Assembly (NCBI GenBank): GCA_964353135.1 | Contig: CAYGTV010000001.1 | Location: 18,696 to 82,695, forward strand | Source of the DNA: an uncultured Candidatus Saccharibacteria bacterium | GTDB taxonomy: Bacteria; Patescibacteriota; Minisyncoccia; Phycocordibacterales; UBA918 | Length of the DNA stretch: 64,000 nucleotides | Reading direction: 5' to 3' | In this document: one piece after another, positions 2,183-62,058 of the stretch | Numbering within the stretch: the first letter of the stretch is position 1 | Layout of the letters: each line of letters opens with the position of its first letter | The notes under the pieces: model-generated | Databases searched by the model: none | The model's input: the letters and a program-made list of their open reading frames with translations, nothing else | What the model was told of the DNA's origin: nothing | Made by a program: the position numbers and the translations under genes

Positions 2183-3801
2183 TCCGATTCGGGCTTTTGT
2201 TTTTTGGGTGTTTGGTCTGTGTGCCTTTTTTCGTACAAGCCCAGGCAACCGAAGACTTTACCATACGTGTATTTGGTGCAATTGATAACCAGTCACCAAG
2301 CACCACCACCATCCAGTTGATTGTGCCGGTAACCTTCTCACAAATTGACCTTTCGTGGGCTGCATCGACTGACAACTTTAATGTCTTTGGGTATGTTGTC
2401 TCTCGTGATGGTATACCAATTGCGACTACTACCTCACTTTTTTATAGTGACACCGGATTGATGGCCTCGACCACCTACAGCTACTCAGTGGTTGCGTTTG
2501 ATGGTGTACCAAACTACTCAAGTTCATCAGCTCCGGCAGCTACCACTACACCCGATATCCCGGTGGTTATACCGCCGGCATCAGCGACGTCATCAGCAGT
2601 AGAGAACGGTACAGCTGCTAGGGTGGTGCTTGATTCGCTTGTGGTTGATGCTGGTACTGTCTCTGCAAACGTAACACTCCAGACTAGACGTCCAGCGCGG
2701 ATTGAAATCAGAATTGGAGAAACGTCCTCTTATGAGATCGGGTATGTGTCTGGTGCTAGATTTGCTCGTGACCACACGATTCCGATAAGTGACCTGCGTC
2801 CAAATACTACGTATTATTACGAAGTATACGGATACACTCCGTCAGGAGCCCAAACTTTTCTGCGTCGTGGTTCGTTTACGACCATGAGTGACACACTACT
2901 TAGTCCACCAGCAAACGTTTTATATTTTTCCGCAAATGCTGAGGGTTCGGACGCGATTTTACAATGGCAGCTCCCAAATACTATGCCTGAAAACGGTCGA
3001 GTGAGAATTGTGCGTAGTCATTATGGATATCCAACGTTTATAAATGACGGGTTCGTTGTTTATGAAGGAGTTGGCCAGCAGGCTCGAGATATAGGTGTTC
3101 TTGGTCAATATAGTCGTGTGTATTATACGGCTTTTGTTATCGATCCTAACGGACGGGTTTCATCGGGTGCGATTGCTTTGGTGTCAGTACAACCAAACCA
3201 GGATTCATCAGACAGTTCAACCGGGCCGCTTGTGCAGCCTAACTTTGGAGCTGGTGAGCAGTCTGGTCAGGACGACAATAGCAGTACCACAGTTAGTGAA
3301 GTCATTAGTCTAAACATGCCCAAGGAGTCTGACATAACCATCATGCAATTAGACGATCTGTTTACAATGGCTAGTGATACGATACCGTTGAGTAGTAATG
3401 CCGTATTTACTATTGCAGTTTCTGCCGATGTGATAGAGGGTGACTTTAAAACTATCGTTGCCACACTTGCTGATCCTCGTGGTTCGCAAAAGACCTTCTC
3501 GTTCCTGCTGCGATTAAACTCTGACAAGACGAGCTATGAGGCTACAATTGCTTCAGTACAAGTGAGCGGGGTGTCTAATTTTATGGTTGAGATTTACGAC
3601 TATGATTCGCTGGTCGTGGCACGGTACATGACAGAGATCGTATTTACTGCCAGCGAAACAGTTTCCAGTTCAACACTAGAACTGTTGTGGTGGCGCATAG
3701 CAACGGCAGCTTGGTATGCAGCTCTGCTTATTCCGTTTTTGTTTTTGCTTTTGCTGTGGTTTGTGTACCGTCGCCGGGAGCAACAAGAAGTGACAAGATG
3801 A
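2179..3801 (+). CDS. fibronectin type III repeat surface protein with C-terminal TM anchor
   Basis: Signal peptide; FN3-like repeat LSWAASTDNFNVFGYVVSRDG...YSYSVVAFD; C-terminal hydrophobic segment followed by YRRREQQ. Confidence 0.55.
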   Translation: MIRFGLLFFGCLVCVPFFVQAQATEDFTIRVFGAIDNQSPSTTTIQLIVPVTFSQIDLSWAASTDNFNVFGYVVSRDGIPIATTTSLFYSDTGLMASTTYSYSVVAFDGVPNYSSSSAPAATTTPDIPVVIPPASATSSAVENGTAARVVLDSLVVDAGTVSANVTLQTRRPARIEIRIGETSSYEIGYVSGARFARDHTIPISDLRPNTTYYYEVYGYTPSGAQTFLRRGSFTTMSDTLLSPPANVLYFSANAEGSDAILQWQLPNTMPENGRVRIVRSHYGYPTFINDGFVVYEGVGQQARDIGVLGQYSRVYYTAFVIDPNGRVSSGAIALVSVQPNQDSSDSSTGPLVQPNFGAGEQSGQDDNSSTTVSEVISLNMPKESDITIMQLDDLFTMASDTIPLSSNAVFTIAVSADVIEGDFKTIVATLADPRGSQKTFSFLLRLNSDKTSYEATIASVQVSGVSNFMVEIYDYDSLVVARYMTEIVFTASETVSSSTLELLWWRIATAAWYAALLIPFLFLLLLWFVYRRREQQEVTR

Positions 3802-8233: not shown

Positions 8234-9235
8234 TTAAACTTTACTCGGCATATAGTCGTCTGGTCGGTTATCTAGGTGTTTCATCAGCTCCTCTAGTGGT
8301 AGTAGTCCAGCTTGTGCACCAACATGTTGCACCACGTTCATAGAGTTAATTGGACCCCATGAGAGTGCTTCGGCTGGGTCTTTCCCTAGGATAATGGCAG
8401 AAGTAAAGGTTGACGAGAACGCGTCACCAGCACCAGTCCGGTCAACTGGAGCAGCTGGATCCGGGTACATTGGCATATGCCACGCTTGGTCATCAGCATC
8501 CACGGTAAACGCTCCATTTGGTCCGTCGGTTACTACCGGAATAGTTGGTCCTAATTCTCGCATCATTCGTACTAACGTCGGTGTGTCTTGTTCGGTGGTC
8601 TTGAGAATTTCCTGAGCCTCTTCTTTGTTGCAGAAAAAAATCTCGGTGTTTTGATACACATCAGCCAACGCTTCGTGACCTAATTTGATTTGGAAGGTCC
8701 CTGGCTGAAAGGCTAGCTTGGTTTCATTACTTTTTACATACTGCGCGATCTCGTGGTGATAGTCGATCCCATGTTCACCAACCGATGAGAAGTAAAAGAA
8801 TTTAGGTGGCACTGGGAAGTCCGGCAGCGCATACGGGTACGTTTCGTGGTTAATAAGAATGGTTCGCTCTGGTCCGTATCGTAGTACGTAGTGATAGTTA
8901 GTTTTCTTATCTTCATGGATTTTTACAAAATCAGTGTGGATACCTTCATCCCTGAGCGCTTGGAGACATTCCTTACCAAATTTATCGTTACCGATGTGGG
9001 TGACCAGTCCCGTTTCTAGACCGAGTCGGTGGGCTGAACAAGCCGCGTTTGGACTGTTTCCAACTGCTGGTACCACTACTACGTCGTCATAGGGTAGTTT
9101 GCTACCAAATGGCATCTGCAGAGTCTTACGGCCTGTGTCTTGGTCAATCGACACGTCAGCTTGGTCAATATTAAGTTGAATAAATGCATCAATGAGTATG
9201 TCGCCGATAGCGACGAAATCGTATTGTTGTGACAT
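8234..9235 (-). CDS. PfkB-family carbohydrate kinase (ribokinase/phosphofructokinase-like)
   Basis: PfkB signature TGAGDAFSSTFTSAIILG near the C-terminus. Start moved to the MSQQYDFVAIGD ATG at 9235; the ORF-track extension to 9298 looks spurious. Confidence 0.7.
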   Translation of the reverse strand: MSQQYDFVAIGDILIDAFIQLNIDQADVSIDQDTGRKTLQMPFGSKLPYDDVVVVPAVGNSPNAACSAHRLGLETGLVTHIGNDKFGKECLQALRDEGIHTDFVKIHEDKKTNYHYVLRYGPERTILINHETYPYALPDFPVPPKFFYFSSVGEHGIDYHHEIAQYVKSNETKLAFQPGTFQIKLGHEALADVYQNTEIFFCNKEEAQEILKTTEQDTPTLVRMMRELGPTIPVVTDGPNGAFTVDADDQAWHMPMYPDPAAPVDRTGAGDAFSSTFTSAIILGKDPAEALSWGPINSMNVVQHVGAQAGLLPLEELMKHLDNRPDDYMPSKV

Positions 9236-11065: not shown

Positions 11066-12424
11066 ATGAAGCGCATAGCTGTATTTTTCCTAGTAGTTAT
11101 TTTTCTTGTGCCTCAGACCAGCGTCCTTGCTGAATCAGACGCCGAGAGGCGAGAAAGAATTGAAAACGAATTACAAAACGTTGAGCGACAGATTTTGACG
11201 CAACAGCGCATTGTGGAAGACAAACAGGTTGAGCGTCGATCACTAGAGCGAGACATGGCAATCATTGAAAGCGAGATTACTCAGGCCCAGCTTGGCATCC
11301 AGGCGCGCAACGCAGCCATTGAACAGCTCTCTGATCAGATCGGAGAAAAAGAAGTCGTGCTCGATGTGCTAGAAGAAAAATTGGGTAAGCAACAGGATTC
11401 ATTAGCAGACCTGGTGCGTAAATCTGCCTTGATCGAAGATTATTCATTAGTAGAGGTGATGCTCAGTAGACGAAGTTTCTCTGACTTTTTTACCGACGTA
11501 GCTACGTTTGAAACACTCAAAGATTCGCTAAATGAATCCCTTGATGTGCTGCATGGTATTCGTCGAGATACAATCGACCAGCGTGAGCAGTTATCTGGCA
11601 AGCAGGAAACAGAGGCAGAGATGCGTCGCATCCAAGAACTAGAGAAGCAAAGGATCGAACAAAAAGAGCGTGAAAAAGAACAGGTGCTTACAATCACAAA
11701 AGGCGAAGAGGCTGAGTATCAGGCGCTGCTGAACTCGCAAAAGAAAACTGCAGCGCAACTACGTAGTCAACTCTTTGACCTCCTTGGTGGTGGTGGAGGT
11801 ATTCCGTTTGGACAGGCTGTAGAGCTGGCACAATATGCCCAGCGGGTGACGGGAGTCGAGGCGGCACTCATCCTCGCGATTTTGGAACAAGAGTCTAACC
11901 TGGGAACCAACCTCGGTAGTTGTCTGTTCACCGACAGTACGTCAGCTCGGCCCGTGATGCACCCGACTCGTGACGAACCAGTGTTCTTGGCAATTGCTGA
12001 AATTCTTGGTTTTGATCCAACCACCAGAACTGTGTCATGTCCGATCGTGCAAAATGGTAGTCGAGTTGGGTGGGGTGGGGCGATGGGTCCATCACAATTT
12101 ATCCCGTCTACCTGGGCGGCATACGGTGGGATTGTAAGTGATGGCGCTGGCGGCTTTGTCTACGATCGTAGTTCTGACGCCATTCGGGCCATCAATGGTG
12201 GAGACATCGCCAACCCGTTTAATAATCGTGATGCGTTTATCGCAACGGCGCTACTGATGCGGGACAACGGTGCTCGGGGAACCTATGACAGTGATCGTAC
12301 CGCAGCTTTACGTTACTACGCCGGGTGGGGTGGTGCCAGTAACCCAGCCAATGCATTCTATGGAAACCAAGTAATGCAACGAAAAGCTCGGCTAGCTGAC
12401 GAAATCCAAATCTTGGCAAACTAG
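11066..12424 (+). CDS. secreted coiled-coil protein with C-terminal lytic transglycosylase (SLT-like) domain
   Basis: Signal peptide MKRIAVFFLVVIFLVPQTSVLA, about 200 aa of coiled coil, then ALILAILEQESNLG, which resembles the SLT E-S catalytic motif. Confidence 0.55.
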   Translation: MKRIAVFFLVVIFLVPQTSVLAESDAERRERIENELQNVERQILTQQRIVEDKQVERRSLERDMAIIESEITQAQLGIQARNAAIEQLSDQIGEKEVVLDVLEEKLGKQQDSLADLVRKSALIEDYSLVEVMLSRRSFSDFFTDVATFETLKDSLNESLDVLHGIRRDTIDQREQLSGKQETEAEMRRIQELEKQRIEQKEREKEQVLTITKGEEAEYQALLNSQKKTAAQLRSQLFDLLGGGGGIPFGQAVELAQYAQRVTGVEAALILAILEQESNLGTNLGSCLFTDSTSARPVMHPTRDEPVFLAIAEILGFDPTTRTVSCPIVQNGSRVGWGGAMGPSQFIPSTWAAYGGIVSDGAGGFVYDRSSDAIRAINGGDIANPFNNRDAFIATALLMRDNGARGTYDSDRTAALRYYAGWGGASNPANAFYGNQVMQRKARLADEIQILAN

Positions 12425-12525
12425 TATCTATTGCCAAATTAGCTTTATTTGCTATAGTTGCGGCACCACGGATTAGGTGTGATCGTTTATTATATTCCTT
12501 TGATCACGCCGAAGTATAAAAACAT

Positions 12526-17871: not shown

Positions 17872-17944
17872 AGCCACCTGTCAGGCTCGAACTGACGACC
17901 TACGCGTTACAAATGCGTTGCTCTACCAACTGAGCTAAGGTGGC
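17872..17944 (-). tRNA. tRNA-Thr (anticodon UGU)
   Basis: The reverse complement folds as a cloverleaf: 7-bp acceptor GCCACCT/AGGTGGC, D-arm GCTC..GAGC, anticodon loop TTTGTAA, T-arm GTCAG TTCGAGC CTGAC, discriminator U; no encoded CCA. Confidence 0.8.
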
Positions 17945-24725: not shown

Positions 24726-26810
24726 ATGCCAGAGAAAAAACCAGCCAAAAAGAAAGAAAAAGGATATGACGCGTCGTCCATCTCGGTCCTTGAAGGACTA
24801 GAGCCAGTACGAAAGCGTCCTGGTATGTATATCGGGACCACTGGCCCTGAGGGACTACACCACATGATCTGGGAAATCTTCGACAACTCGCGCGATGAGG
24901 CGATGGGTGGGTTTGCTGATCGAGTAGAGGTAACGCTGCTTCCAGATAACTACATCCGGGTAGTCGACAACGGTCGGGGGATCCCGGTTGATATTCACAA
25001 ACAAACCAAAGTCTCGGCACTTGAAACAATCATGTGTACCCTGCATGCCGGAGGAAAGTTTGGTGGTGACGATTCAGGCTACAAGGTTTCTGGGGGTCTT
25101 CACGGTGTGGGTATTTCGGTGGTAAACGCATTGTCGACTCATACACGGGTAGACGTGCACAAGGATGGTGATCACTACGTCCAGGAATACAACATCGGTA
25201 TCGCTAAAGCCCGGGTGAAAAAACTTGGTAAAACTAAACACAACGGAACGATTGTGATGTTCCAAGCTGACCCGACTATTTTCCCGGAAATTAAATTTGA
25301 ATGGAAGAAAATCGTCAACCACTTGCGGCAGCAGGCGTACTTAGTAAAAGGGATGCGGATGAGCGTGATTGATGCACGTGAGAGTGACGCTAAATTAGAT
25401 GCAAAATCACTCGAGGACACCATTTACCTAGGTGATAGTCATTTGTCTGTACCGCACCAAACCTTCTACTTTGAAGGTGGTCTACGGTCGCTAGTGGCTT
25501 TCAATAACTCATACCAAAAGCCAGTCCATAAAAATATTTTCTACGTAGAAAAAAATGACGTGTCACCAGAAGTGCTGACAGTTGAAGTCGCGCTGCAGTA
25601 TGTGGACGACATATCTCCTCGTATCACTGCGTTTGCCAACAACATCTACAACCCAGAACACGGAACCCATATCACTGGTTTTAAAACTGCGTTGACCCGA
25701 ACCCTCAATAACTACGCCAAGAAAGGAAACTTTTTCTCAGTCAAAGATAAAGATGCCGGTTTTACTGGAGACGACGTACTAGAAGGAATTACTGCCGTGG
25801 TTTCGGTTAAAATGCCTGAGATCCAATTCGAGGGCCAGACAAAGGCTAAACTCGGTTCAGTCGAGGCGCGAGGAGCAACCGAAAGTGTGTTTGCAGAAGC
25901 TTTTGCTGCGTTTCTAGAAGAAAACCCAGACGACGCCAAAGCGATGATCAACAAGGTGATCCTTGCGGTAAAAGCACGAAAAGCAGCCAAAGCAGCCAAA
26001 GATTCTGTACTGCGTAAGGGTGCCCTTGAAGGGATGTCGCTACCAGGAAAACTGGCCGACTGTCAGAGTAAAAAAGCAGAAGATAGTGAACTGTTTATCG
26101 TAGAGGGAGACTCAGCTGGAGGATCAGCGAAAATGGGTCGTGACCGAAAGACTCAAGCGATTTTGCCATTGCGAGGAAAAATTCTCAACGTTGAACGAGC
26201 ACGAATCGACAAGATGCTCGCGAGTGAACAGATCAAAAACCTCGTGATTGCGCTGGGAACCGCTATCGGTGATGTGTTTGATGTATCTAAACTGCGATAC
26301 CACAAAATCATCATCGCCACTGACGCGGACGTCGACGGGGCACACATCCGGACCCTACTTTTGACGCTTTTCTTCCGCTACTTCCGACAGCTGATTGATG
26401 AAGGGTACGTATACATCGCGATGCCGCCGCTATACAAAATCCAAAAAGGAAAGGAAACTCGTTATGCTTACACCGAAGATGAAAAATTTGCAGTCCTAAA
26501 AGATATGGGAGAAGAAGTGACTGATGAAATCGACGAGAGTTCCGATGAGGAAGGGGAGGATGATGATGCAGAGGTGGTTGCCAAAAAAGGTGGAAAGGCT
26601 CGTATTCAGCGGTACAAAGGTCTGGGAGAAATGAACGCCGAGGAGCTTGGTGAAACAACCATGAACATCAACAACCGAATCCTCAAGCAAGTAACGATCG
26701 ATGACGCGCTGGCAGCTGACAAGGTGTTTGATATCTTGATGGGGACAGATGTACCGTCGCGAAAATCCTTTATTCAGAACAACGCCAAAACAGCAAATCT
26801 GGATATTTAA
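24726..26810 (+). CDS. gyrB: DNA gyrase subunit B
   Basis: GHKL ATPase N-terminus (LEGLEPVRKRPGMYIG), Toprim domain (EGDSAGGSAK), and an acidic insertion DEIDESSDEEGEDDDAE near the C-terminus. Confidence 0.9.
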   Translation: MPEKKPAKKKEKGYDASSISVLEGLEPVRKRPGMYIGTTGPEGLHHMIWEIFDNSRDEAMGGFADRVEVTLLPDNYIRVVDNGRGIPVDIHKQTKVSALETIMCTLHAGGKFGGDDSGYKVSGGLHGVGISVVNALSTHTRVDVHKDGDHYVQEYNIGIAKARVKKLGKTKHNGTIVMFQADPTIFPEIKFEWKKIVNHLRQQAYLVKGMRMSVIDARESDAKLDAKSLEDTIYLGDSHLSVPHQTFYFEGGLRSLVAFNNSYQKPVHKNIFYVEKNDVSPEVLTVEVALQYVDDISPRITAFANNIYNPEHGTHITGFKTALTRTLNNYAKKGNFFSVKDKDAGFTGDDVLEGITAVVSVKMPEIQFEGQTKAKLGSVEARGATESVFAEAFAAFLEENPDDAKAMINKVILAVKARKAAKAAKDSVLRKGALEGMSLPGKLADCQSKKAEDSELFIVEGDSAGGSAKMGRDRKTQAILPLRGKILNVERARIDKMLASEQIKNLVIALGTAIGDVFDVSKLRYHKIIIATDADVDGAHIRTLLLTLFFRYFRQLIDEGYVYIAMPPLYKIQKGKETRYAYTEDEKFAVLKDMGEEVTDEIDESSDEEGEDDDAEVVAKKGGKARIQRYKGLGEMNAEELGETTMNINNRILKQVTIDDALAADKVFDILMGTDVPSRKSFIQNNAKTANLDI

Positions 26811-26828
26811 AAGCTGTACTTTGTTGGA

Positions 26829-26895
26829 CTGCGAAAAAAGCCGCTCACTGGACACTTGTCCCATTCGCGGCTTTTTGCATGCCCGCCGCATACAG
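26829..26895. repeat. structured terminator-like repeat element, copy 1 (downstream of gyrB)
   Basis: About 88% identical over 66 nt to 61775..61838. Outer stem AAAAAGCCGC/GCGGCTTTTT encloses inner hairpin GGACActtGTCC. Flanked by a perfect 20-bp inverted repeat at 26792..26811 and 26899..26918. Confidence 0.7.
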
Positions 26896-26940
26896 TAATT
26901 TAAATATCCAGATTTGCTATCAGGACTTCAAAATACAAAC

Positions 26941-26968
26941 AAAGACCGCGTCTTGGGACGCGGTCTTT
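26941..26968 (-). terminator. rho-independent terminator of the minus-strand surface-protein gene
   Basis: aaagaccgcgtc ttgg gacgcggtcttt hairpin just past the stop at 26986, followed by a T-rich run on the minus strand. Confidence 0.6.
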
Positions 26969-26985
26969 GTTTAAAGAGTTAGTTG

Positions 26986-28050
26986 CTAGTTAGCAAATGT
27001 CACTCGTTGTTCGAATGCATCGTTTCGACTGTTTCGGTCGGTTGATTCGTCAACAGAAACTTCAAATGTATGAGAAGCGTCAGATCCGGCTGCAAAGCCA
27101 ATCGTGAGTACTGCTCGTTCATTTGGTTTTAGTGGGACTTGGACTGGTGAGTTGTACGTACCACCATTTGGAAGTGACACCTCAAATGTCCAGTTGCTAG
27201 AAGTCTTGGTCCCAAAGTTCTTGACTGAGAATTGGATTGCTCCACCTTCGTTAGCCTCTACTGTGCCTGGGACAAACCGGTTGCTTACTATATCACCAAC
27301 AGCGATAAACGAAGTCGATAGGTCTGTGACACCATTTGGGTCAGAAGTAGGGATTTCGTATACAAATTCCTGTTCAAACACTGGTGTGCTTGGCGTTGGT
27401 GTAACTGGAGTGATCACCGCTGGTGTCTCTGGTTCTGGTACGGCTGGCACTTCAGGTTCTACTACTACTTCGTTGGTGAGTTCACCTGAGTCAGTATTAA
27501 ATACAAATCCATTTACTTCCTCGTTGATGATAGTTACCACGTCTGAACCCATTGCTCGTGGTTCGGTGTCGTTTGTTGATAGAAATCCAACACTATATGT
27601 GACGTCAGTGTATCGATTTTTTTCAGATTCAATAGCTACAGTGAGTGATGTTACATCACCGACATTGTAATTTGTGTCACACGCTAGCTGTCGTTCAACA
27701 GTTCCTTCAATTTGGTTGACAGCAACTCCATCAATACAGTCATAGGCAAACACGTATGATCCCCTGGCGTTGGCTGATTCCCATTCAATATCAAGCGCTT
27801 CACCTGTTTTCATGAGTGACGTGTTGCTAGTGACAATAATTGGTTCCATCACGTCATCCTCAACCATTGTTTCAGATGCCTGATCGACTCCTTCTGCAAG
27901 CGAAGCGAGTGATGTCAGGGCGTTAGGGAATAATTGAACTAGTTGAATTGAAAGCCAAGCTAGCAGTAGTACGATAGCGACGAATCCTGCAACAGCAAAT
28001 GTATTGAGGATCGACACTTTCTTTTGTGGTGATACGTTATTTGTTTCCAT
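26986..28050 (-). CDS. membrane-anchored extracellular hypothetical protein (Pro/Thr-rich linker)
   Basis: N-terminal signal anchor; PEVPAVPEPETPAVITPVTPTPSTP linker; beta-rich C-terminal domains; divergent from the sortase gene. Confidence 0.5.
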   Translation of the reverse strand: METNNVSPQKKVSILNTFAVAGFVAIVLLLAWLSIQLVQLFPNALTSLASLAEGVDQASETMVEDDVMEPIIVTSNTSLMKTGEALDIEWESANARGSYVFAYDCIDGVAVNQIEGTVERQLACDTNYNVGDVTSLTVAIESEKNRYTDVTYSVGFLSTNDTEPRAMGSDVVTIINEEVNGFVFNTDSGELTNEVVVEPEVPAVPEPETPAVITPVTPTPSTPVFEQEFVYEIPTSDPNGVTDLSTSFIAVGDIVSNRFVPGTVEANEGGAIQFSVKNFGTKTSSNWTFEVSLPNGGTYNSPVQVPLKPNERAVLTIGFAAGSDASHTFEVSVDESTDRNSRNDAFEQRVTFAN

Positions 28051-33703: not shown

Positions 33704-33726
33704 TATAATCTAGTAATTGTATAAAC

Positions 33727-33758
33727 AAAAAGCCGGTGCCTTAGGGCACCGGCTTTTT
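33727..33758 (+). terminator. rho-independent terminator after the 1167-aa surface protein gene
   Basis: aaaaagccggtgcc ttag ggcaccggcttttt, a perfect 14-bp stem with an A-run before and a T-run after. Confidence 0.7.
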
Positions 33759-33819
33759 GTTTTAGGCTTATTAAATTATCACGCTGACAGAAAACTCAAT
33801 GCGTATTATGATGTAAGTA

Positions 33820-38427: not shown

Positions 38428-41400
38428 TTACGCTCTAATAGTCTGCGTGTCAACCGACTCAACAAATTCCGGCTCTGGCCCCAACCGTTTCATTCGGTCT
38501 ACCAAAATACTTGGTTCGTCGTTGCGGATGTTGAGCTTGCCTTTGACGGCAACACAGGTGCCTGGGACGAGCATTTCGCGGTGAGCTTCGAAACACTCAG
38601 GGAAGGTGACCATTTCCATCGACTCGTCCTTGGTCGCCAGCTGTACAAACGCCATTTTGTCGCCTTTTTTAGTGATCAACTCACGAACCGCCTGGATCAT
38701 ACCGGCCGTTACAACTGGGATACCTTGTCGACCATCAGCTTTTACCGTCGAGAGAGGTGAGCGTTTTTTGATTTCATCGGTAAAAGCATCAAGCGGGTGA
38801 CCAGACACGTATACTCCAAGTAGGTCTTTTTCCCAGATCAATTTTTGCTCTTTGCTGATGTCTGTCGCTGGGTACAGGGTCAGTCCGCCGACTTCCGTCA
38901 TCGCTCCAAATAGTGAGTCTTGATTGGCTGCTTTGCCAGCCACTTGTTCTTTGTTGTAGGACAGGAGTACCTCTAGGTTGCCGTACAGCGTGTCACGGGT
39001 TTCAAACCGATCAAACGCTCCGGTGCAGATCAGGGCTTCCATTGATTTTTTATTGAGAGCTCGATCATGAATCCGTTCCAGGAAATTTTGCATGGATGTA
39101 AACGGTCCGTTAGCTTTTCGATCATCAATGATTGTTTGTGCGATCCCCGCACCAAAGTTTTTGATAGTAGTTAAACCAAACCGAATGGTTTGGGTACCTG
39201 GTACCACGGAAAAGTCAGCGAATGATTCGTTGATGTCTGGCGGTAGTACGTCGATACCCATTCGTTCACATTCATGGATCGAGTCGTAAATCCGGTCGGT
39301 ATCACCCGAGTCAGCCGTGAGTACCGCTGACATGTATTCGACGGGAAAGTTCGCCTTCATATAAGCAGTCTGGTAGGCAACTCGACCGTATGACGCCGCG
39401 TGGGCCTTGTTAAATCCGTACGCAGCAAATGGTTCGATCAGTTTCCATAACTGTTCAGCTTTTTGTTCGGTCATGCCGTTGTCGATCAATCCTTGGAAGA
39501 GTTTATCTTTCTCGGCGGCCATTACTTCGGGAATTTTCTTTCCCATCGCTTTACGCAATTTGTCAGCCTCAAGCCAGCTGTAGCCAGCTAGCTTAATCGC
39601 CGTCATCATCACGTCATCCTGGTAGGTGATCACCCCGTATGATCGATCAATGATTTCTTCCAGACGTGGGTCGAGGTATGTCACTAAACTAGGGTTGTGT
39701 TTTCGTTCAATATATTGAGGGATCATTTCCATCGGACCAGGGCGGTATAGGGCCACCATCGCGTTGATGTCGTGAATGGTGGTTGGTTTCAGTTGTTTCA
39801 GGAACGACGTCATTCCGGTACCGTTCAATTGGAATAGTCCCATCGTTTCACCCCGAGCCAGCATCTCAAACGTCTTTTGGTCATCGAGGGGAATGTTTTC
39901 AATATCGACGTCGACGTTACGAATTTTCTTTACTCGCTTTACTGCATCAGCCAAAATCGCCAGGTTTTTAATCCCCAGGAAGTCGAATTTAAGGAGACCA
40001 ACTCCGTCTTCACCCACACTATGCATTTCGTACTGGGTGACGTATTTACCAGTTTTCGAGTCGGGCTGGATTGGGACATATTGGTTGAGTGGAACAGGAG
40101 AGATAACCACCCCCGCGGCATGAACCCCAATGTGTCGGACACGACCCTCGATTTGTTTGGCAAGGTCAATCACTTCGCGCGACTCAGCGTCTTTTTTGTA
40201 TAACTCAGCCAATTCTTTTTCTTCTACCAGCGCGCGCTCAATGGTCATCGGGAACCCCTGGGCGCCCAGGGGGATTAGTTTCGAGATCCGGTCACCAGTA
40301 CTGTACGGGTGACCAAGGGCGCGCGCCACGTCACGTACCGCCGCTTTGGCGGCCATGGTTCCAAAGGTACCGATCTGGGCTACTTTGTCTTCACCATATT
40401 TTTGTTTGGCGTATTCGATAATTTCATCACGTCGATTATCGGCAAAGTCCATGTCGATGTCAGGGGCAGACGGACGCTCAGGGTTAAGGAATCGTTCAAA
40501 GGGAAGTTTGTATTCGAGCGGGTTTACGTTCGTGATCCCCAGCACGTAGGTCGTAAATGATCCCGCCACCGAACCACGAATAGTGGTGAGGATTCCTCGT
40601 TCACGCGCCTCGCGCAGCAGGTCACCTACCACGAGAAAGTACTTGGCGTAGCCCTTCATCTTGATCACATCCAGCTCGTAGTCGAGACGGGTTTTTACCT
40701 TCTCATCAGTAATGTCGAGTCCGCGCCACTTCACTCCAGCGTACGCGGTGATTTGTAGCTCTTCGTCCGGCTCGCGCCCGCTTTCGATTATAAAATCAGG
40801 AAATACCCAAGCATCCATCCCGAGGGTGATTTCGACGTTACACTGGTTGGCAATTTTGACAGTATTAGAAAGCGCTTCTGGAGTGTCTTTGAACCACTCT
40901 TTCATGTCGGCTTGGGTTTTGAAAGAGAAGTCTTCGGCTCCATCGTGATCAGACGATGTATCAACCACACCGCCACTTTGAATCTTGATCATTGTCTCTC
41001 GAGCGATGCGATCCTCTGGCTTCATATAGTAAATATCGTGCGCGGCGACCAGTGGAGTTTTTGTTTCAGCTGCCAATTCTTTGATCAGCTTCTGGTTACT
41101 CATGTGACCAAAAATCTCTGGGTGGTGACTGATTTCAAGGTAGCAATCCGCGCCGAACGTTTTCTTGTACCAATCAAGCCGCTCCGCTGCGCGTTCTGGT
41201 AGCGAGTCTTTGAGGGCTTGGGCAACTTCGCCGGCAAACGAGGGGATGATGCAGATGAGGTCTTCTTTGTTTTTCTCCAGCAGTTCATCATCAATCCGGG
41301 GTTTGTAGTAGAAGCCTTCGGTGTTTGACTTGGTGACCAGCTCAATCAGGTTTTGGTAACCCTTAAACGTTTTAGCCAGCAAAACCAGTCGTGACCGTGG

Positions 41401-43643: not shown

Positions 43644-44555
43644 ATGGCCAACCGACATTTATCCCGTAGCATCGTTCTTCAGTCACTCTTTGAGTGGGAT
43701 TTAAATGCGCTTGAGAAGAAAGCCGTGCACGAAGTGCTTGACCGAAACGTTGCAGAATTCGCACCTAATAAAACCGACACTCCATTTATGGCAAAGTTGC
43801 TCGATGGTGTGATGTCAAAGCAGTCTGAATTGGATCTGGTGATCGAAAAGGCTGCTCCAGAATGGCCAATTGATCGAATTTCTCCTGTCGATCGAAATAT
43901 CCTCAGACTTGGTCTATACGAACTACTCTTTGCAGATCGCAAGGAGGTCCCAGCAAAAGTAGCAATCAACGAAGCAATTGAACTCGCTAAACAATTTGGC
44001 GGTGACAATAGTAGTCGGTTTGTTAACGGTGTACTAGGTGCGGTGTACAAAGAAATTGGTGAACCAGGCAAAGATGAACAAGGTGCAAAGCGTAAAAAGC
44101 AAGTTGCCTTTGAAGACATGCCCATTCAGCGACTGGCCGGTGCGGTAGTGTACGCCCAACACGAAGGACAGATGTATCTGGCTTTAGTACACGACATTTT
44201 TGGACACTGGACCCTATCAAAAGGAAAAATTGAAGATGGCGAGACGGTCGAGGCTGGTGCAGCACGTGAACTCAAAGAAGAAATTGGGCTTGATATAACA
44301 ATCGAAGCTGAGCTAGGTAATAATGAATACGTTGCTAGCAATCCAGAGTTAGGCAAGGTTCGCAAGCAAGTGCACTATTTCCTAGCAAAAGCAGAGTATC
44401 GGGAACTAGTGCTGGAACAAAAAGGTGGACTAGATGATGCCAAGTGGTTTAAAGTAGCCGAAATCCTTGACCTTAACTTTTATGAGGATATTCTGCCGAT
44501 TGTTACCAAGGCCATTACTATGCTCGTCGGTCGAGGAACACAAGAAATGAAATAA
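43644..44555 (+). CDS. nusB: NusB transcription antitermination factor fused to a C-terminal Nudix hydrolase domain
   Basis: aa 1-140 are NusB-like (ILRLGLYELLF...AINEAIELAKQFGGDNSSRFVNGVLGAV); aa ~155-300 carry a Nudix box GKIEDGETVEAGAARELKEEIGL (GX5EX7REUXEEXGU). Confidence 0.75.
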   Translation: MANRHLSRSIVLQSLFEWDLNALEKKAVHEVLDRNVAEFAPNKTDTPFMAKLLDGVMSKQSELDLVIEKAAPEWPIDRISPVDRNILRLGLYELLFADRKEVPAKVAINEAIELAKQFGGDNSSRFVNGVLGAVYKEIGEPGKDEQGAKRKKQVAFEDMPIQRLAGAVVYAQHEGQMYLALVHDIFGHWTLSKGKIEDGETVEAGAARELKEEIGLDITIEAELGNNEYVASNPELGKVRKQVHYFLAKAEYRELVLEQKGGLDDAKWFKVAEILDLNFYEDILPIVTKAITMLVGRGTQEMK

Positions 44556-44704
44556 CTTCTTCGTTGTACGGCGTATTTTTTCATTCACCGTACCTCTGGA
44601 CGACTCATTCAAAAATACCAATACGCCCCGAATTTAAATTCATTCATTGCGTCCCTAAAGCCAAAGCTAGTAAAAGAATATTAATTTGATACTGTATACA
44701 CAAC

Positions 44705-45415
44705 ATGGCAGATTACGAACCAAACACAGATTTACATAAACTACAGACAATCCTTGGGACGCAATTCAACGACCTAGATTTGTTGCGGTCAGCTGTTACC
44801 CATCGATCGTATTTAAACGAACACAAGGAAGCCACCTGGGAGCATAACGAGCGTCTAGAATTCCTAGGTGATGCAGTGCTAGAGCTGGTGGTGACCGATT
44901 TTTTGTTCAAGAAGTACACCGATAAACCAGAAGGTGAGCTAACTGCAGTGCGGGCTGCTCTAGTGAACACGGTTTCGCTGTCAGCAGCGTCAGAGGCACT
45001 TGGGGTCAATGAATTCCTAATGATGAGTAAAGGGGAAGCGAAAGACATGGGTCGGGCGCGACAGTATATTCTCGCGAATACGTTTGAGGCCTGCATCGGA
45101 GCGATGTACATGGATCAAGGGTACGACGCTGCCCAGCAGTTCATAGCGACCCATCTCTTTCCAAAGACTGATGAAATAGTTGCCAAAAGACTATGGCAAG
45201 ACCCCAAGTCACGGTTTCAAGAGTTGGCCCAAGAGCACCACAGTGTGACACCGACATATGAGACGGTTGCACAAGAGGGTCCTGATCATGATCGTATATT
45301 TACCGTTGGGGTATTTCTACGCAAAGAGCAGGTTGCCGCTGGGACTGGCCGCTCCAAACAAGAGGCCGAGCAAGCCGCCGCCCTAGCTGCTATGACCGTC
45401 AAAGGTTGGGACTAG
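44705..45415 (+). CDS. rnc: ribonuclease III
   Basis: RNase III signature ERLEFLGDAVLELVVTDFLF; C-terminal dsRBD. Confidence 0.9.
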   Translation: MADYEPNTDLHKLQTILGTQFNDLDLLRSAVTHRSYLNEHKEATWEHNERLEFLGDAVLELVVTDFLFKKYTDKPEGELTAVRAALVNTVSLSAASEALGVNEFLMMSKGEAKDMGRARQYILANTFEACIGAMYMDQGYDAAQQFIATHLFPKTDEIVAKRLWQDPKSRFQELAQEHHSVTPTYETVAQEGPDHDRIFTVGVFLRKEQVAAGTGRSKQEAEQAAALAAMTVKGWD

Positions 45416-52521: not shown

Positions 52522-52887
52522 ATGAATATGGATCAGCACGAAGATAAGCAATTTCTAGAAACGGTAGTAAAATCACTGGTAGATTACCCTGAATCAGTCA
52601 AAATCAATCGAACTGTCGACGAGATGGGTGTTTTGCTCACGCTCGACGTACACGCGGACGATATGGGTAAAATCATTGGTCGCAGCGGAAACACCGCTAA
52701 AGCCATCCGAACTCTCTTACGAGTAGTAGGGATGAAGCACGACGCCCGAGTCAATCTCAAAATCAACGAACCAGAAGGAGGACGACAAATGGACGAAGAA
52801 ACCGCACAAGTGATGCAAGAAGATAATGGTGGTTCAGCAGACGTTGAAAAAAGCCTCGATGATGCCATTGCTGACCTCAAAATCTAG
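52522..52887 (+). CDS. KH-domain RNA-binding protein (KhpA/YlqC-like, UPF0109)
   Basis: VDYPESVKINRTVDEMGVLLTLDVHADDMGKIIGRSGNTAKAIRTLLRVVG is a KH fold with the GxxG loop; conserved position after rpsP; extended C-terminus. Confidence 0.75.
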   Translation: MNMDQHEDKQFLETVVKSLVDYPESVKINRTVDEMGVLLTLDVHADDMGKIIGRSGNTAKAIRTLLRVVGMKHDARVNLKINEPEGGRQMDEETAQVMQEDNGGSADVEKSLDDAIADLKI

Positions 52888-53029
52888 CCAGAAAAGTAAA
52901 ATCGACGAACTTCTTTGTCAGCTAATCGTAAAATAGTCTTCACCGTACACTTGTACGACTCAAACTATTTTTCTCAGCTTCCTCGAGTTTCATTCAATTA
53001 TACTTCTCTGGAAATGTAGAGATATATAC

Positions 53030-61754: not shown

Positions 61755-61774
61755 TACCACCTACTTCGTTATGC

Positions 61775-61838
61775 TACGCAAAAAGCCGCTCACTGGGCAT
61801 TCGCCCCATTCGCGGCTTTTTGCTTGCCCTCCTTACAG
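61775..61838. repeat. structured terminator-like repeat element, copy 2 (downstream of rpoC)
   Basis: Outer stem AAAAAGCCGC/GCGGCTTTTT with inner hairpin GGGCattcGCCC; paralogous to 26829..26895 with compensatory inner-stem changes. Confidence 0.7.
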
Positions 61839-62058
61839 GAGCTGTACATCTTTTGGCTTTTTTGTTCGCAAGCTCCAAAATATCTCAAAAGGTCTTGCGA
61901 AAGTCTCCCAGACTTTCTCACCTCGTATCTGACATCATCCTGATTCACTTGTTTCCAGGAGCTTATTTAGATAAAACACCCTGGCAGCTATTTTGGATAC
62001 GCTGCAGCGATAATGCTCTGAGCGAGGACTCGGATTCAAATAGCCGCCAGAGTGTGCG

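Follow-up and report, generated by a model that had tools for sequence, protein, structure and literature searches.

Palindromes of the REP/REPIN (RAYT) type and those derived from IS200/IS605 are imperfect, carry conserved mismatches and lie in intergenic regions after genes. They can serve as terminators or stabilise mRNA and are thought to move as single-stranded hairpins. At the sib/tI site of phage lambda a terminator is nested in a longer duplex which is formed only upon read-through and is a substrate of RNase III. Repeats of the Correia (CREE), ERIC/IRU, RUP and BOX type are short, non-coding and multi-copy, show insertion polymorphism between strains, are transcribed together with their neighbours and give rise to long RNA hairpins. 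The CREE hairpins of Neisseria bind RNase III, are cut by it and alter the expression of adjacent genes (PMC2649163). Template switching, which leads to quasipalindrome mutations, creates and homogenises hairpin stems in a single step (PMC8794818, PMC13100816, PMC7202029). Here we analyze a stretch of 64,000 nucleotides from an uncultured Candidatus Saccharibacteria bacterium (contig CAYGTV010000001.1, positions 18,696 to 82,695 of the forward strand; hereafter the window). We find that a hairpin downstream of gyrB is one member of a dispersed family of non-coding, rod-shaped elements of about 86 nt in a Paceibacteria group of the candidate phyla radiation (CPR/Patescibacteria). The unusual trait of this family among structured dispersed intergenic repeats is an inverted duplication that captures the stop codon of the preceding gene.

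The window contains four copies of the element (A to D). Each is built from the helices P1 to P4, and the gyrB copy is in addition enclosed by a basal helix P0:

26813-26898, + strand: copy A after gyrB, full 86-nt core (covariance-model matches of 90-92 bits, E ~1e-23)
26813-26819/26890-26896, + strand: P1 of copy A
26823-26829/26881-26886, + strand: P2 of copy A
26833-26844/26867-26878, + strand: P3 of copy A
26845-26849 (TCACT) and 26862-26866 (CATTC), + strand: internal loop of copy A
26850-26853/26858-26861, + strand: P4 of copy A, with the terminal loop at 26854-26857
26792-26811, + strand: left arm of P0 of copy A, comprising the last six gyrB codons, the stop codon TAA (26808-26810) and one further base
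26899-26918, + strand: right arm of P0 of copy A, an inverted copy of 26792-26811 that is missing in relatives without the element
61758-61843, + strand: copy B after rpoC (87-95 bits)
61778-61789/61812-61823 and 61795-61798/61803-61806, + strand: P3 and P4 of copy B; its P1 and P2 are degenerate, and P0 is absent (score 11, equal to background)
52907-52993, + strand: copy C after khpA (52522-52887; 35 bits with model R1, 76 bits with R3)
44553-44638, + strand: copy D after a nusB-NUDIX gene (43644-44555; 35 bits with model R2, 68 bits with R3)

A preliminary description of this DNA had pointed to two copies of about 65 nt after gyrB and rpoC. Both are present at these places, and their 44-nt core (AAAAAGCCGCTCACTGG-N9-CCCATTCGCGGCTTTTTGC, at 26835-26878 and 61780-61823) is contained in none of 100 dinucleotide-preserving shuffles. 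By BLAST the two sequences are identical at 45/50 positions; over the coordinates used at that time the identity is 55/64-67, a little less than the ~88% given for them. Each copy folds as proposed into an outer stem of 12 bp, a 5x5 loop and an inner hairpin of 4 bp, with fold-energy z values of -4.2 and -5.2. Among the compensatory changes assigned to the inner stem, one is a true pair (A-U to G-C), whereas the fifth "pair" is situated in the loop. The hairpin unit of ~127 nt reaching over the gyrB 3′ end does exist, and the 141-nt region at gyrB folds at -61 kcal/mol (z = -8.8), but the conserved unit is larger than had been assumed: it comprises the 86 nt of P1-P4 and begins about 20 nt upstream of the stem that had been noted.

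We searched about 276 kb from several genomes, that is the window plus the fetched loci (numbered with L), with covariance models in three successive rounds (R1-R3), which revealed diverged copies. In total 14 copies were found, four in the window and ten in related Paceibacteria contigs. The element is thus neither confined to two copies nor lacking in relatives. With the filters off, the window yields exactly four matches of at least 68 bits, the next match having at most 18 bits; matches on the reverse strand reach only 19-28 bits or less. Among the copies outside the window, one came from searching 185,579 species-representative genomes with the exact pattern; it lies in a metagenome-assembled genome of Candidatus Paceibacteria after a gene for an S1-domain (rpsA-like) protein. 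A looser pattern applied to metagenome contigs had revealed those after gyrB (in the close relative L002), rpoC (L003), rpsG (L004, which equals L007) and rpmE (L005). The named protein homologues carry the labels Candidatus Kaiserbacteria, Paceibacterota or Parcubacteria, and the window is accordingly DNA of a CPR bacterium from this group. Near-identical cores recur across loci and genomes (window copies A and B; L001 and L003). In the window, the density is about one element per 16 kb; the 9-kb contig L005 is far denser with three copies, two of which, one after an SLT-domain gene and one after rpmE, bracket rpmE (2769-3378), while the third follows a glycosyltransferase gene (8250-8337).

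Two further matches were dismissed as chance. The outer stem of the metagenome match L006 is non-complementary, and the sole pattern match in viral contigs (L017, from a giant-virus bin) lies inside a coding region, has an unpairable outer stem and scores 21 bits. A scan of the whole window against Rfam 15 at gathering thresholds left the element unmatched and returned a single tRNA; permissive Rfam scans of the gyrB and rpoC copies returned nothing but pieces of NrrF and Thr_leader that resemble terminators and score far below threshold. A search of the literature for a CPR element of this kind found no description.

The conserved unit consists of four helices separated by conserved, pyrimidine-rich internal loops. 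P1 has 7 bp of variable sequence; its arms share only a weak consensus and co-vary. A 3x3 loop (UUY/CUY) separates P1 from P2, which reads 5′-GUUG-NNN / NNN-CGCC-3′ with a conserved U.G pair and is followed by a short junction. P3 has 12 bp and no fixed sequence. It is wholly unlike between copies, for example GCCGC/GCGGC, GACCC/GGGTC, GGCCC/GGGCC or AAAUUUUGAU/AUCAAAAUUU, and carries a conserved apical module of 26 nt. Within this module a symmetric 5x5 loop, either UCACU/CAUUC (subtype I) or UCACC/GACUC (subtype II), leads to P4 (GGAC/GUCC or GUAC/GUAC) and a terminal loop of 4-6 nt. The central position of the 5x5 loop is A-U in most copies and G-C in L010. Similarity between copies reaches about 20 nt beyond P3 on both sides, and about 80% of the unpaired positions are pyrimidines when the sense strand is read. 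Conservation is found in the loops, P2 and P4 and not in P3, which would be the terminator stem.

The secondary structure is maintained by compensatory changes. In a model-fitted alignment of 12 copies, 87.6% of the cells assigned to pairs are paired compared with 61.9% in shuffles (0/500 reach the observed value), slid-partner controls on the same alignment give 38-48%, and 25 of the 29 pairs have changed on both sides. Such an alignment leans towards the model. The analysis was therefore repeated with an independent MAFFT alignment and RNAalifold, which recover P2-P4 with compensatory changes in 18/20 pairs. Selection on structure, which had been suspected from two copies, is hence borne out by the covariation within the family.

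All 14 copies are co-oriented with the upstream open reading frame (ORF), and in 13 of them its first base falls at -3 to +19 nt relative to the stop codon; both nusB copies begin on the stop codon itself. The upstream genes encode GyrB, RpoC, KhpA, the NusB-NUDIX protein, an S1 protein and the ribosomal proteins L31 and S7, but also a DUF11/CLIPPER surface protein, an SLT-domain transglycosylase and a family-2 glycosyltransferase. The element is therefore not restricted to highly expressed operons, as had been considered at first: glycosyltransferase, transglycosylase, surface protein and nusB-NUDIX genes are all followed by copies. The idea of a terminator family holds for one half of the family. 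Seven copies, including those after gyrB and rpoC, are terminator-like with a GC-rich P3 followed by a U-run, and they follow the housekeeping genes gyrB, rpoC, rpsA, rpmE and rpsG. In the other seven, P3 is AU-rich, the 3′ U-run is missing, or the U-run is found on the 5′ arm (nusB copy). These copies lie inside operons between closely spaced co-directional genes such as nusB and rnc, khpA and trmD, or the family-2 glycosyltransferase gene and the next gene. The composition of P3 thus follows the transcriptional context, terminator-like at operon ends and AU-rich within operons.

Both other copies of the window belong to this second half. Copy C has an AU-rich P3, subtype II loops (UCACC/GACUC) and an imperfect P0 (15/18) which begins right after the stop codon; its P0 score of 21 is above that of every non-cognate pairing. 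An element at the equivalent khpA position is present in L010 (2709-2796). Copy D starts with the TAA stop of the nusB-NUDIX gene, and 67 nt separate its end from the RNase III gene rnc (44705-45415) that follows; both genes were assigned through Pfam. It has the U-run on the 5′ arm of P3 and so is not a terminator. Its orthologue is found at L018 9840-9926.

The perfect 20-bp inverted repeat around the gyrB copy, which includes the gyrB stop codon TAA, was correctly described (26792-26811 and 26899-26918). The longest stop-proximal inverted repeat of the other 47 ORFs of the window has at most 8 nt. It does not represent terminal inverted repeats belonging to the element but a locus-specific inverted duplication of the gene end. 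A mobile element resembling MITEs (miniature inverted-repeat transposable elements) or REPs and an RNA-level module were sensible candidates. In P0, the 13-27 nt in front of the element, which hold the final codons of the host gene and its stop, return in inverted form as the 3′ arm. We aligned the 35 nt upstream of each copy to the reverse complement of the 45 nt downstream and used 156 non-cognate pairings as null. In 10 of the 13 testable copies the cognate score (19-40, with 40 at the window gyrB copy) exceeds all non-cognate scores (at most 18). The P0 arms abut P1 on both sides and always include the stop codon, and their sequences are unrelated between loci. Perfect helices of 20 bp (window gyrB) and 16 bp (L005 2769) occur; no P0 is seen at rpoC in the window or at rpsG in L004, and that of the window nusB copy is weak or decayed.

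The left arm of P0 is coding and the C-terminus of the protein is conserved (GyrB ...ANLDI*), and the right arm must therefore be the derived one. The mismatches in P0, including the L002 sequence, are 3 G.U versus 8 A.C plus transversion-type changes and thus show no wobble bias, which would be expected if point mutation kept up the helix as RNA. Together with the perfect arms of 16-20 bp this points to a mechanical origin of P0 followed by decay or now and then by renewed homogenisation of the arms. We suggest that P0 would have been made by fold-back or template-switch copying of the left flank, primed from the hairpin of the element itself. Template-switch mutations resemble the observed pattern in that a perfect reverse-complement copy arises beside an existing hairpin (PMC8794818, PMC13100816, PMC7202029). 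P0 matches this, with a sequence that depends on the locus and a length that varies, with its place directly against P1 and with perfect arms when young. They differ in being known as sporadic events; neither a regular companion of a dispersed element nor a systematic capture of stop codons has been described for them.

A direct target-site duplication, a point raised in the preliminary description, was looked for at the copies and not found; the flanks are inverted, not direct, copies. Some junctions show a short palindromic TTTAAA/TTAA that is indistinguishable from the inner end of P0. Short stop-centred inverted repeats were seen at two empty sites, GGAAAATAG-tg-CTATTTTCC in L020 (9960-9979) and TTGGCAA-11 nt-TTGCCAA in the window (12413-12419 / 12431-12437); these could be excision footprints or insertion targets. 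Pre-existing palindromes at stop codons as a general insertion target were retained as no more than a lead: perfect stop-centred hairpins of at least 7 bp occur in 4.4% of 181 genes compared with 1.1% at coding controls, which is suggestive and not significant.

Comparison with relatives reveals that copies are gained and lost within the time in which species diverge. At the gyrB sites of four relatives (L013-L016, 86-93% GyrB identity over the C-terminal 299 residues) only 50-83 nt with one ordinary terminator are found. The window site has the same convergent gene and about 108 nt more, and still contains an ordinary terminator:

26937-26972, no strand assigned: bidirectional terminator, a 16-bp perfect stem also found by the terminator scan, serving gyrB and the convergent gene
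26986-28050, - strand: CARDB-domain gene, convergent with gyrB

By comparison with the single equivalent terminators at the empty sites, this terminator is the ancestral one, kept downstream of the insertion. The element itself is missed by a simple terminator scan, as its "loop" is longer than 8 nt. The rpoC site is empty, with simple and unrelated terminators, in L008 (92% RpoC identity), L009 and L012 (both 82%) and L010 (77%), and filled in L003 (82%). The nusB-rnc spacer has 31-32 nt in L020, L021 and L022 and 149-158 nt with the element in the window and the close relative L018. The khpA copy is shared by the window and the distant L010 with related P3 sequences (AAAAUAGU vs AAAAUAAU); at the khpA site of L018, L020 and L021 the element was not detected. 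Finally, the SLT, rpmE and glycosyltransferase sites are filled in L005 and empty in the window. Empty orthologous sites in close relatives thus imply that copies have been gained or lost.

We also considered that the mobile unit could be the apical module alone (loops and P4), inserted into the loops of ordinary terminators. This was not retained; the filled and empty rpoC and khpA sites, when aligned, share only a generic A-tract, stem and T-tract, which speaks neither for nor against it.

Orthologous copies allow a view on constraint. Between the window and the Ga0208544 genome (L002/L018), the GyrB proteins differ by 7.5% and the third codon positions of gyrB are only 59% identical. The gyrB elements are identical at 78/86 positions (91%), the differences being mainly in the P2/P3 junction and the terminal loop. 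The nusB copies of the same pair are only 61% identical, yet P1, P2 and P4 are kept, and the stop-codon pair has changed from UAA/UUA to UGA/UCA with pairing preserved. Judged by these comparisons, the copies appear to behave unlike neutral junk, though recurrent template switching can mimic compensation. Stop codon usage is also skewed: TAA is found at 12/14 filled sites and TAG at 14/22 orthologous empty sites (Fisher p = 0.006, phylogeny ignored), with a background of TAA at 22/43 in the window. The pattern could be due to a target preference or to selection for the strongest stop before a stable structure. The excess of TAA at filled sites is consistent with a structure that matters to terminating ribosomes.

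With moderate confidence we favour the following view. The element would be a structured RNA module of the 3′ untranslated region (UTR) or of intercistronic regions that spreads by copying and insertion, and P0 would be produced by fold-back template switching. A copy of the hairpin would be inserted at another position, right behind a stop codon. At insertion or later, the nascent DNA strand could fold back on the stem of the element, copy the upstream flank as reverse complement and return to the template. The element would then be transcribed as the 3′ UTR or as an intercistronic part of the upstream mRNA. In copies with a GC-rich P3 and U-run (gyrB, rpoC, rpsA, rpmE, rpsG), P3 would serve as intrinsic terminator, and the conserved core of P2, P4 and the pyrimidine-rich loops could form a double-stranded RNA module recognised by a protein. 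Most plausibly this module would be processed by an enzyme of the RNase III type, or would block 3′-exonucleases and thereby determine how stable the upstream message is.

The most concrete candidate for the recognising protein is probably RNase III. The predicted duplex has 29 pairs in P1-P4 plus the 13-27 bp of P0; substrates of RNase III such as rncO, T7 R1.1 and lambda sib have about 20 bp or more of double-stranded RNA that is largely continuous and often contains internal loops. RNase III is favoured by this interrupted duplex of 40-55 bp with P0, by the presence of rnc with its double-stranded RNA-binding domain in the window, and by the copy in the rnc leader. In E. coli, rnc is autoregulated through cleavage of a hairpin in its 5′ UTR (PMC5371410). 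That the copy in the rnc leader is an ancient autoregulatory site was nevertheless rejected, as the short spacers of L020, L021 and L022 are without the element.

Several points weigh against this view. The rnc-leader copy appears, from the spacers just mentioned, to be a lineage-specific and recent insertion. G.U (15) and A.C (13) cells in P1-P4 are about equal. The strand on which the element acts is indicated mainly by the conserved pyrimidine-rich loops and the co-orientation with genes, and both could equally reflect the direction of replication, as 36 of the 43 window genes are on the + strand. Termination is not the shared function, since seven of the 14 copies are without terminator features. 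Where a U-run is present it lies inside the rod, and a terminated transcript would consequently be devoid of the 3′ arms of P2, P1 and P0. In terminator-like copies, these helices could play a part only when transcription reads through, or at the level of DNA. Fold-back synthesis is proposed because it suits the pattern, not because such an event was observed, and by itself it leaves the targeting of stop codons unexplained. A trans-acting nuclease or transposase may exist beyond the ~276 kb sampled. Transcription, termination and RNase III processing of the element are things that we infer from the sequence.

One could go further and propose that spread is independent of any transposase. The hairpin would be copied to a stop codon, its own stem would prime fold-back DNA synthesis by which the end of the host gene would become the base of a long helix, and the host would keep the module, recognised by RNase III- or KH-type proteins, as a 3′-end or intercistronic signal which ties translation termination to mRNA processing. 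We regard this extended proposal as rather unlikely; if true, CPR bacteria would possess a mobile cis-regulatory RNA of a new kind.

It is conceivable that P0 is instead a selected RNA helix which sequesters the stop and the last codons. It could be a duplex formed only upon read-through and cut by RNase III, that is retroregulation, or it could couple translation termination to 3′-end processing. The geometry predicted for the gyrB copy is that of lambda sib/tI, a terminator hairpin nested in a longer duplex of at least 20 bp. The rnc gene of the window, the occurrence of P0 in 10/13 copies with the stop codon always included, the compensatory change of the stop-codon pair and the enrichment of TAA at filled sites all fit such a role. 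Moreover the visible part of the right arm is conserved at 10/12 positions between the window and L002, where synonymous sites are 59% identical. Yet sib is a single phage site without pairing of a stop codon, whereas the element is dispersed and half of its copies are without terminator. A selected helix would also not readily account for mismatches without wobble preference, nor for the absence of P0 at rpoC and rpsG (L004) and its decay at the window nusB copy. Perfect arms of 16-20 bp are hard to reach via point mutation, and apparent compensation is also produced by recurrent template switching (PMC8794818). We therefore rate selection of P0 as a possible but not a likely explanation.

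The element might alternatively be selfish DNA of the MITE/REP type. Its hairpin would then act as single-stranded DNA for a transposase or HUH nuclease encoded elsewhere, the loops would be contacts for mobilisation, and any host function would be nil or incidental. The polymorphism of presence and absence at three orthologous sites and the near-identical cores between loci and genomes are what such an element would leave. So is the form of an imperfect palindrome with conserved asymmetric mismatches, as known from IS200/IS605 ends and REPs. The strand bias could mirror replication direction, and G.U pairs are not enriched over A.C. As in MITEs, the copies are multiple, non-coding and polymorphic in site, and the element resembles CREE and similar repeats, as well as REPs, in being predicted to fold into an RNA hairpin that could modulate neighbouring genes; but it has neither shared terminal inverted repeats nor direct duplications. 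CREE, ERIC and RUP elements are bounded by conserved terminal inverted repeats, duplicate their target directly (TA in the case of CREE) and are inserted in either orientation. In contrast, the outermost helix of our element is a locus-specific duplication of the flank, its orientation is fixed to the upstream gene, it is positioned at stop codons, and no cognate transposase is known. REPs, of 20-40 nt and with a conserved tetranucleotide at the 5′ end, number in the hundreds and flank RAYT genes, whereas the element has 86 nt and four helices. The loop asymmetry, with pyrimidines on both arms of the same strand, is conserved and would not be given by an inverted REP doublet. Neither a transposase nor an HUH domain was found in the ~43 window ORFs or among the Pfam labels of the called genes in L008-L016 and L018-L022, and no match to RAYT, Y1_Tnp or TnpA in the window ORFs. 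Furthermore, orthologous copies outlast saturating synonymous divergence, being 91% identical or compensated in their helices, and the composition of P3 follows transcriptional context. A purely selfish element thus seems doubtful to us. Even so, it would be the first small palindromic repeat family described for the lineage, as far as searched, and a marker of strain-level variation.

Other known structures were discarded. Integron attC sites have GTTRRRY/RYYYAAC at their arm ends, which is missing here; the host genes are core housekeeping genes in conserved synteny, and no integrase was seen. Group II intron domain V, boxA, parS, CsrA sites and DNA uptake sequences were dropped too, since the alignment does not show the sequence features that define them.

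Very unlikely, in our view, is a plain family of intrinsic terminators of highly expressed operons whose members resemble each other through vertical descent or convergent constraint. Seven copies do look like canonical intrinsic terminators, with a GC-rich stem and U-run directly downstream of and co-oriented with housekeeping genes, and ordinary terminators of the window (e.g., 33726-33759) share the design A5-GCCG...CGGC-T5. However, the stem of the element bears the conserved apical module and its flanks pair. Conservation resides in the loops, P2 and P4 rather than in the terminator stem, and the seven remaining copies, between co-transcribed genes, are without terminator features. The gyrB and L016 copies even stand between the stop codon and a separate ordinary bidirectional terminator, and at the orthologous sites of relatives simple, unrelated terminators are in use. 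That the resemblance is due to chance, or to one terminator duplicated locally in this genome, as the two near-identical window copies visible by eye might suggest, has a negligible probability given the core pattern in 0/100 shuffles, ten further copies in other genomes and metagenomes and the strong covariation.

CPR bacteria are uncultured and have genomes of ~1 Mb with very short intergenic regions, and RNA-level regulation and small mobile elements are almost unexplored in them. A structure that is supported by covariation and absent from Rfam is thus a candidate for a new RNA motif or element family. P0 in addition illustrates clearly, in nature, how a long perfect stem may come about in a single step beside a hairpin that already exists, and it joins the creation of helices by template switching, terminator evolution and control by RNase III in one testable setting.

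Some further observations concern the surroundings of the copies. Copies A and B both end in TACAG, as the preliminary description had it, and the octamer AGCTGTAC abuts both; its significance is modest (shuffle p ~0.02), and it is also found at 38639. After the rpoC copy, AGCTGTAC-ATCTTTTGG (61840-61856) resembles the 5′ end of the gyrB copy, AGCTGTAC-TTTGTTGG (26812-26827), and looks like a partial second unit in head-to-tail arrangement. In the 3′ flank of the rpoC copy (61828-61841), 8 nt (CCTCCTTA) are identical to the canonical 3′ end of 16S rRNA, and the AGGAG that comes next is able to pair with them; the other copies are without this feature. Downstream of khpA in L018 (18098-18284) and L020 (17974-18160), another kind of long nested palindrome lies between direct ACTCATTC repeats.

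The sole Rfam match of the window at gathering thresholds is located apart from the four copies:

17872-17944, - strand: tRNA gene

In L010 (4682-11620), L012 (1-2299) and L015 (8915-10996), rpoB, rpoC or gyrB are called as two adjacent ORFs, whereas they are single ORFs in the window. The genes may truly be split or hold an intervening sequence, or a frameshift or an assembly error may be the cause. The gene preceding copy D (43644-44555) encodes NusB fused to a NUDIX hydrolase domain, and the same fusion is present in L018, L020 and L021.

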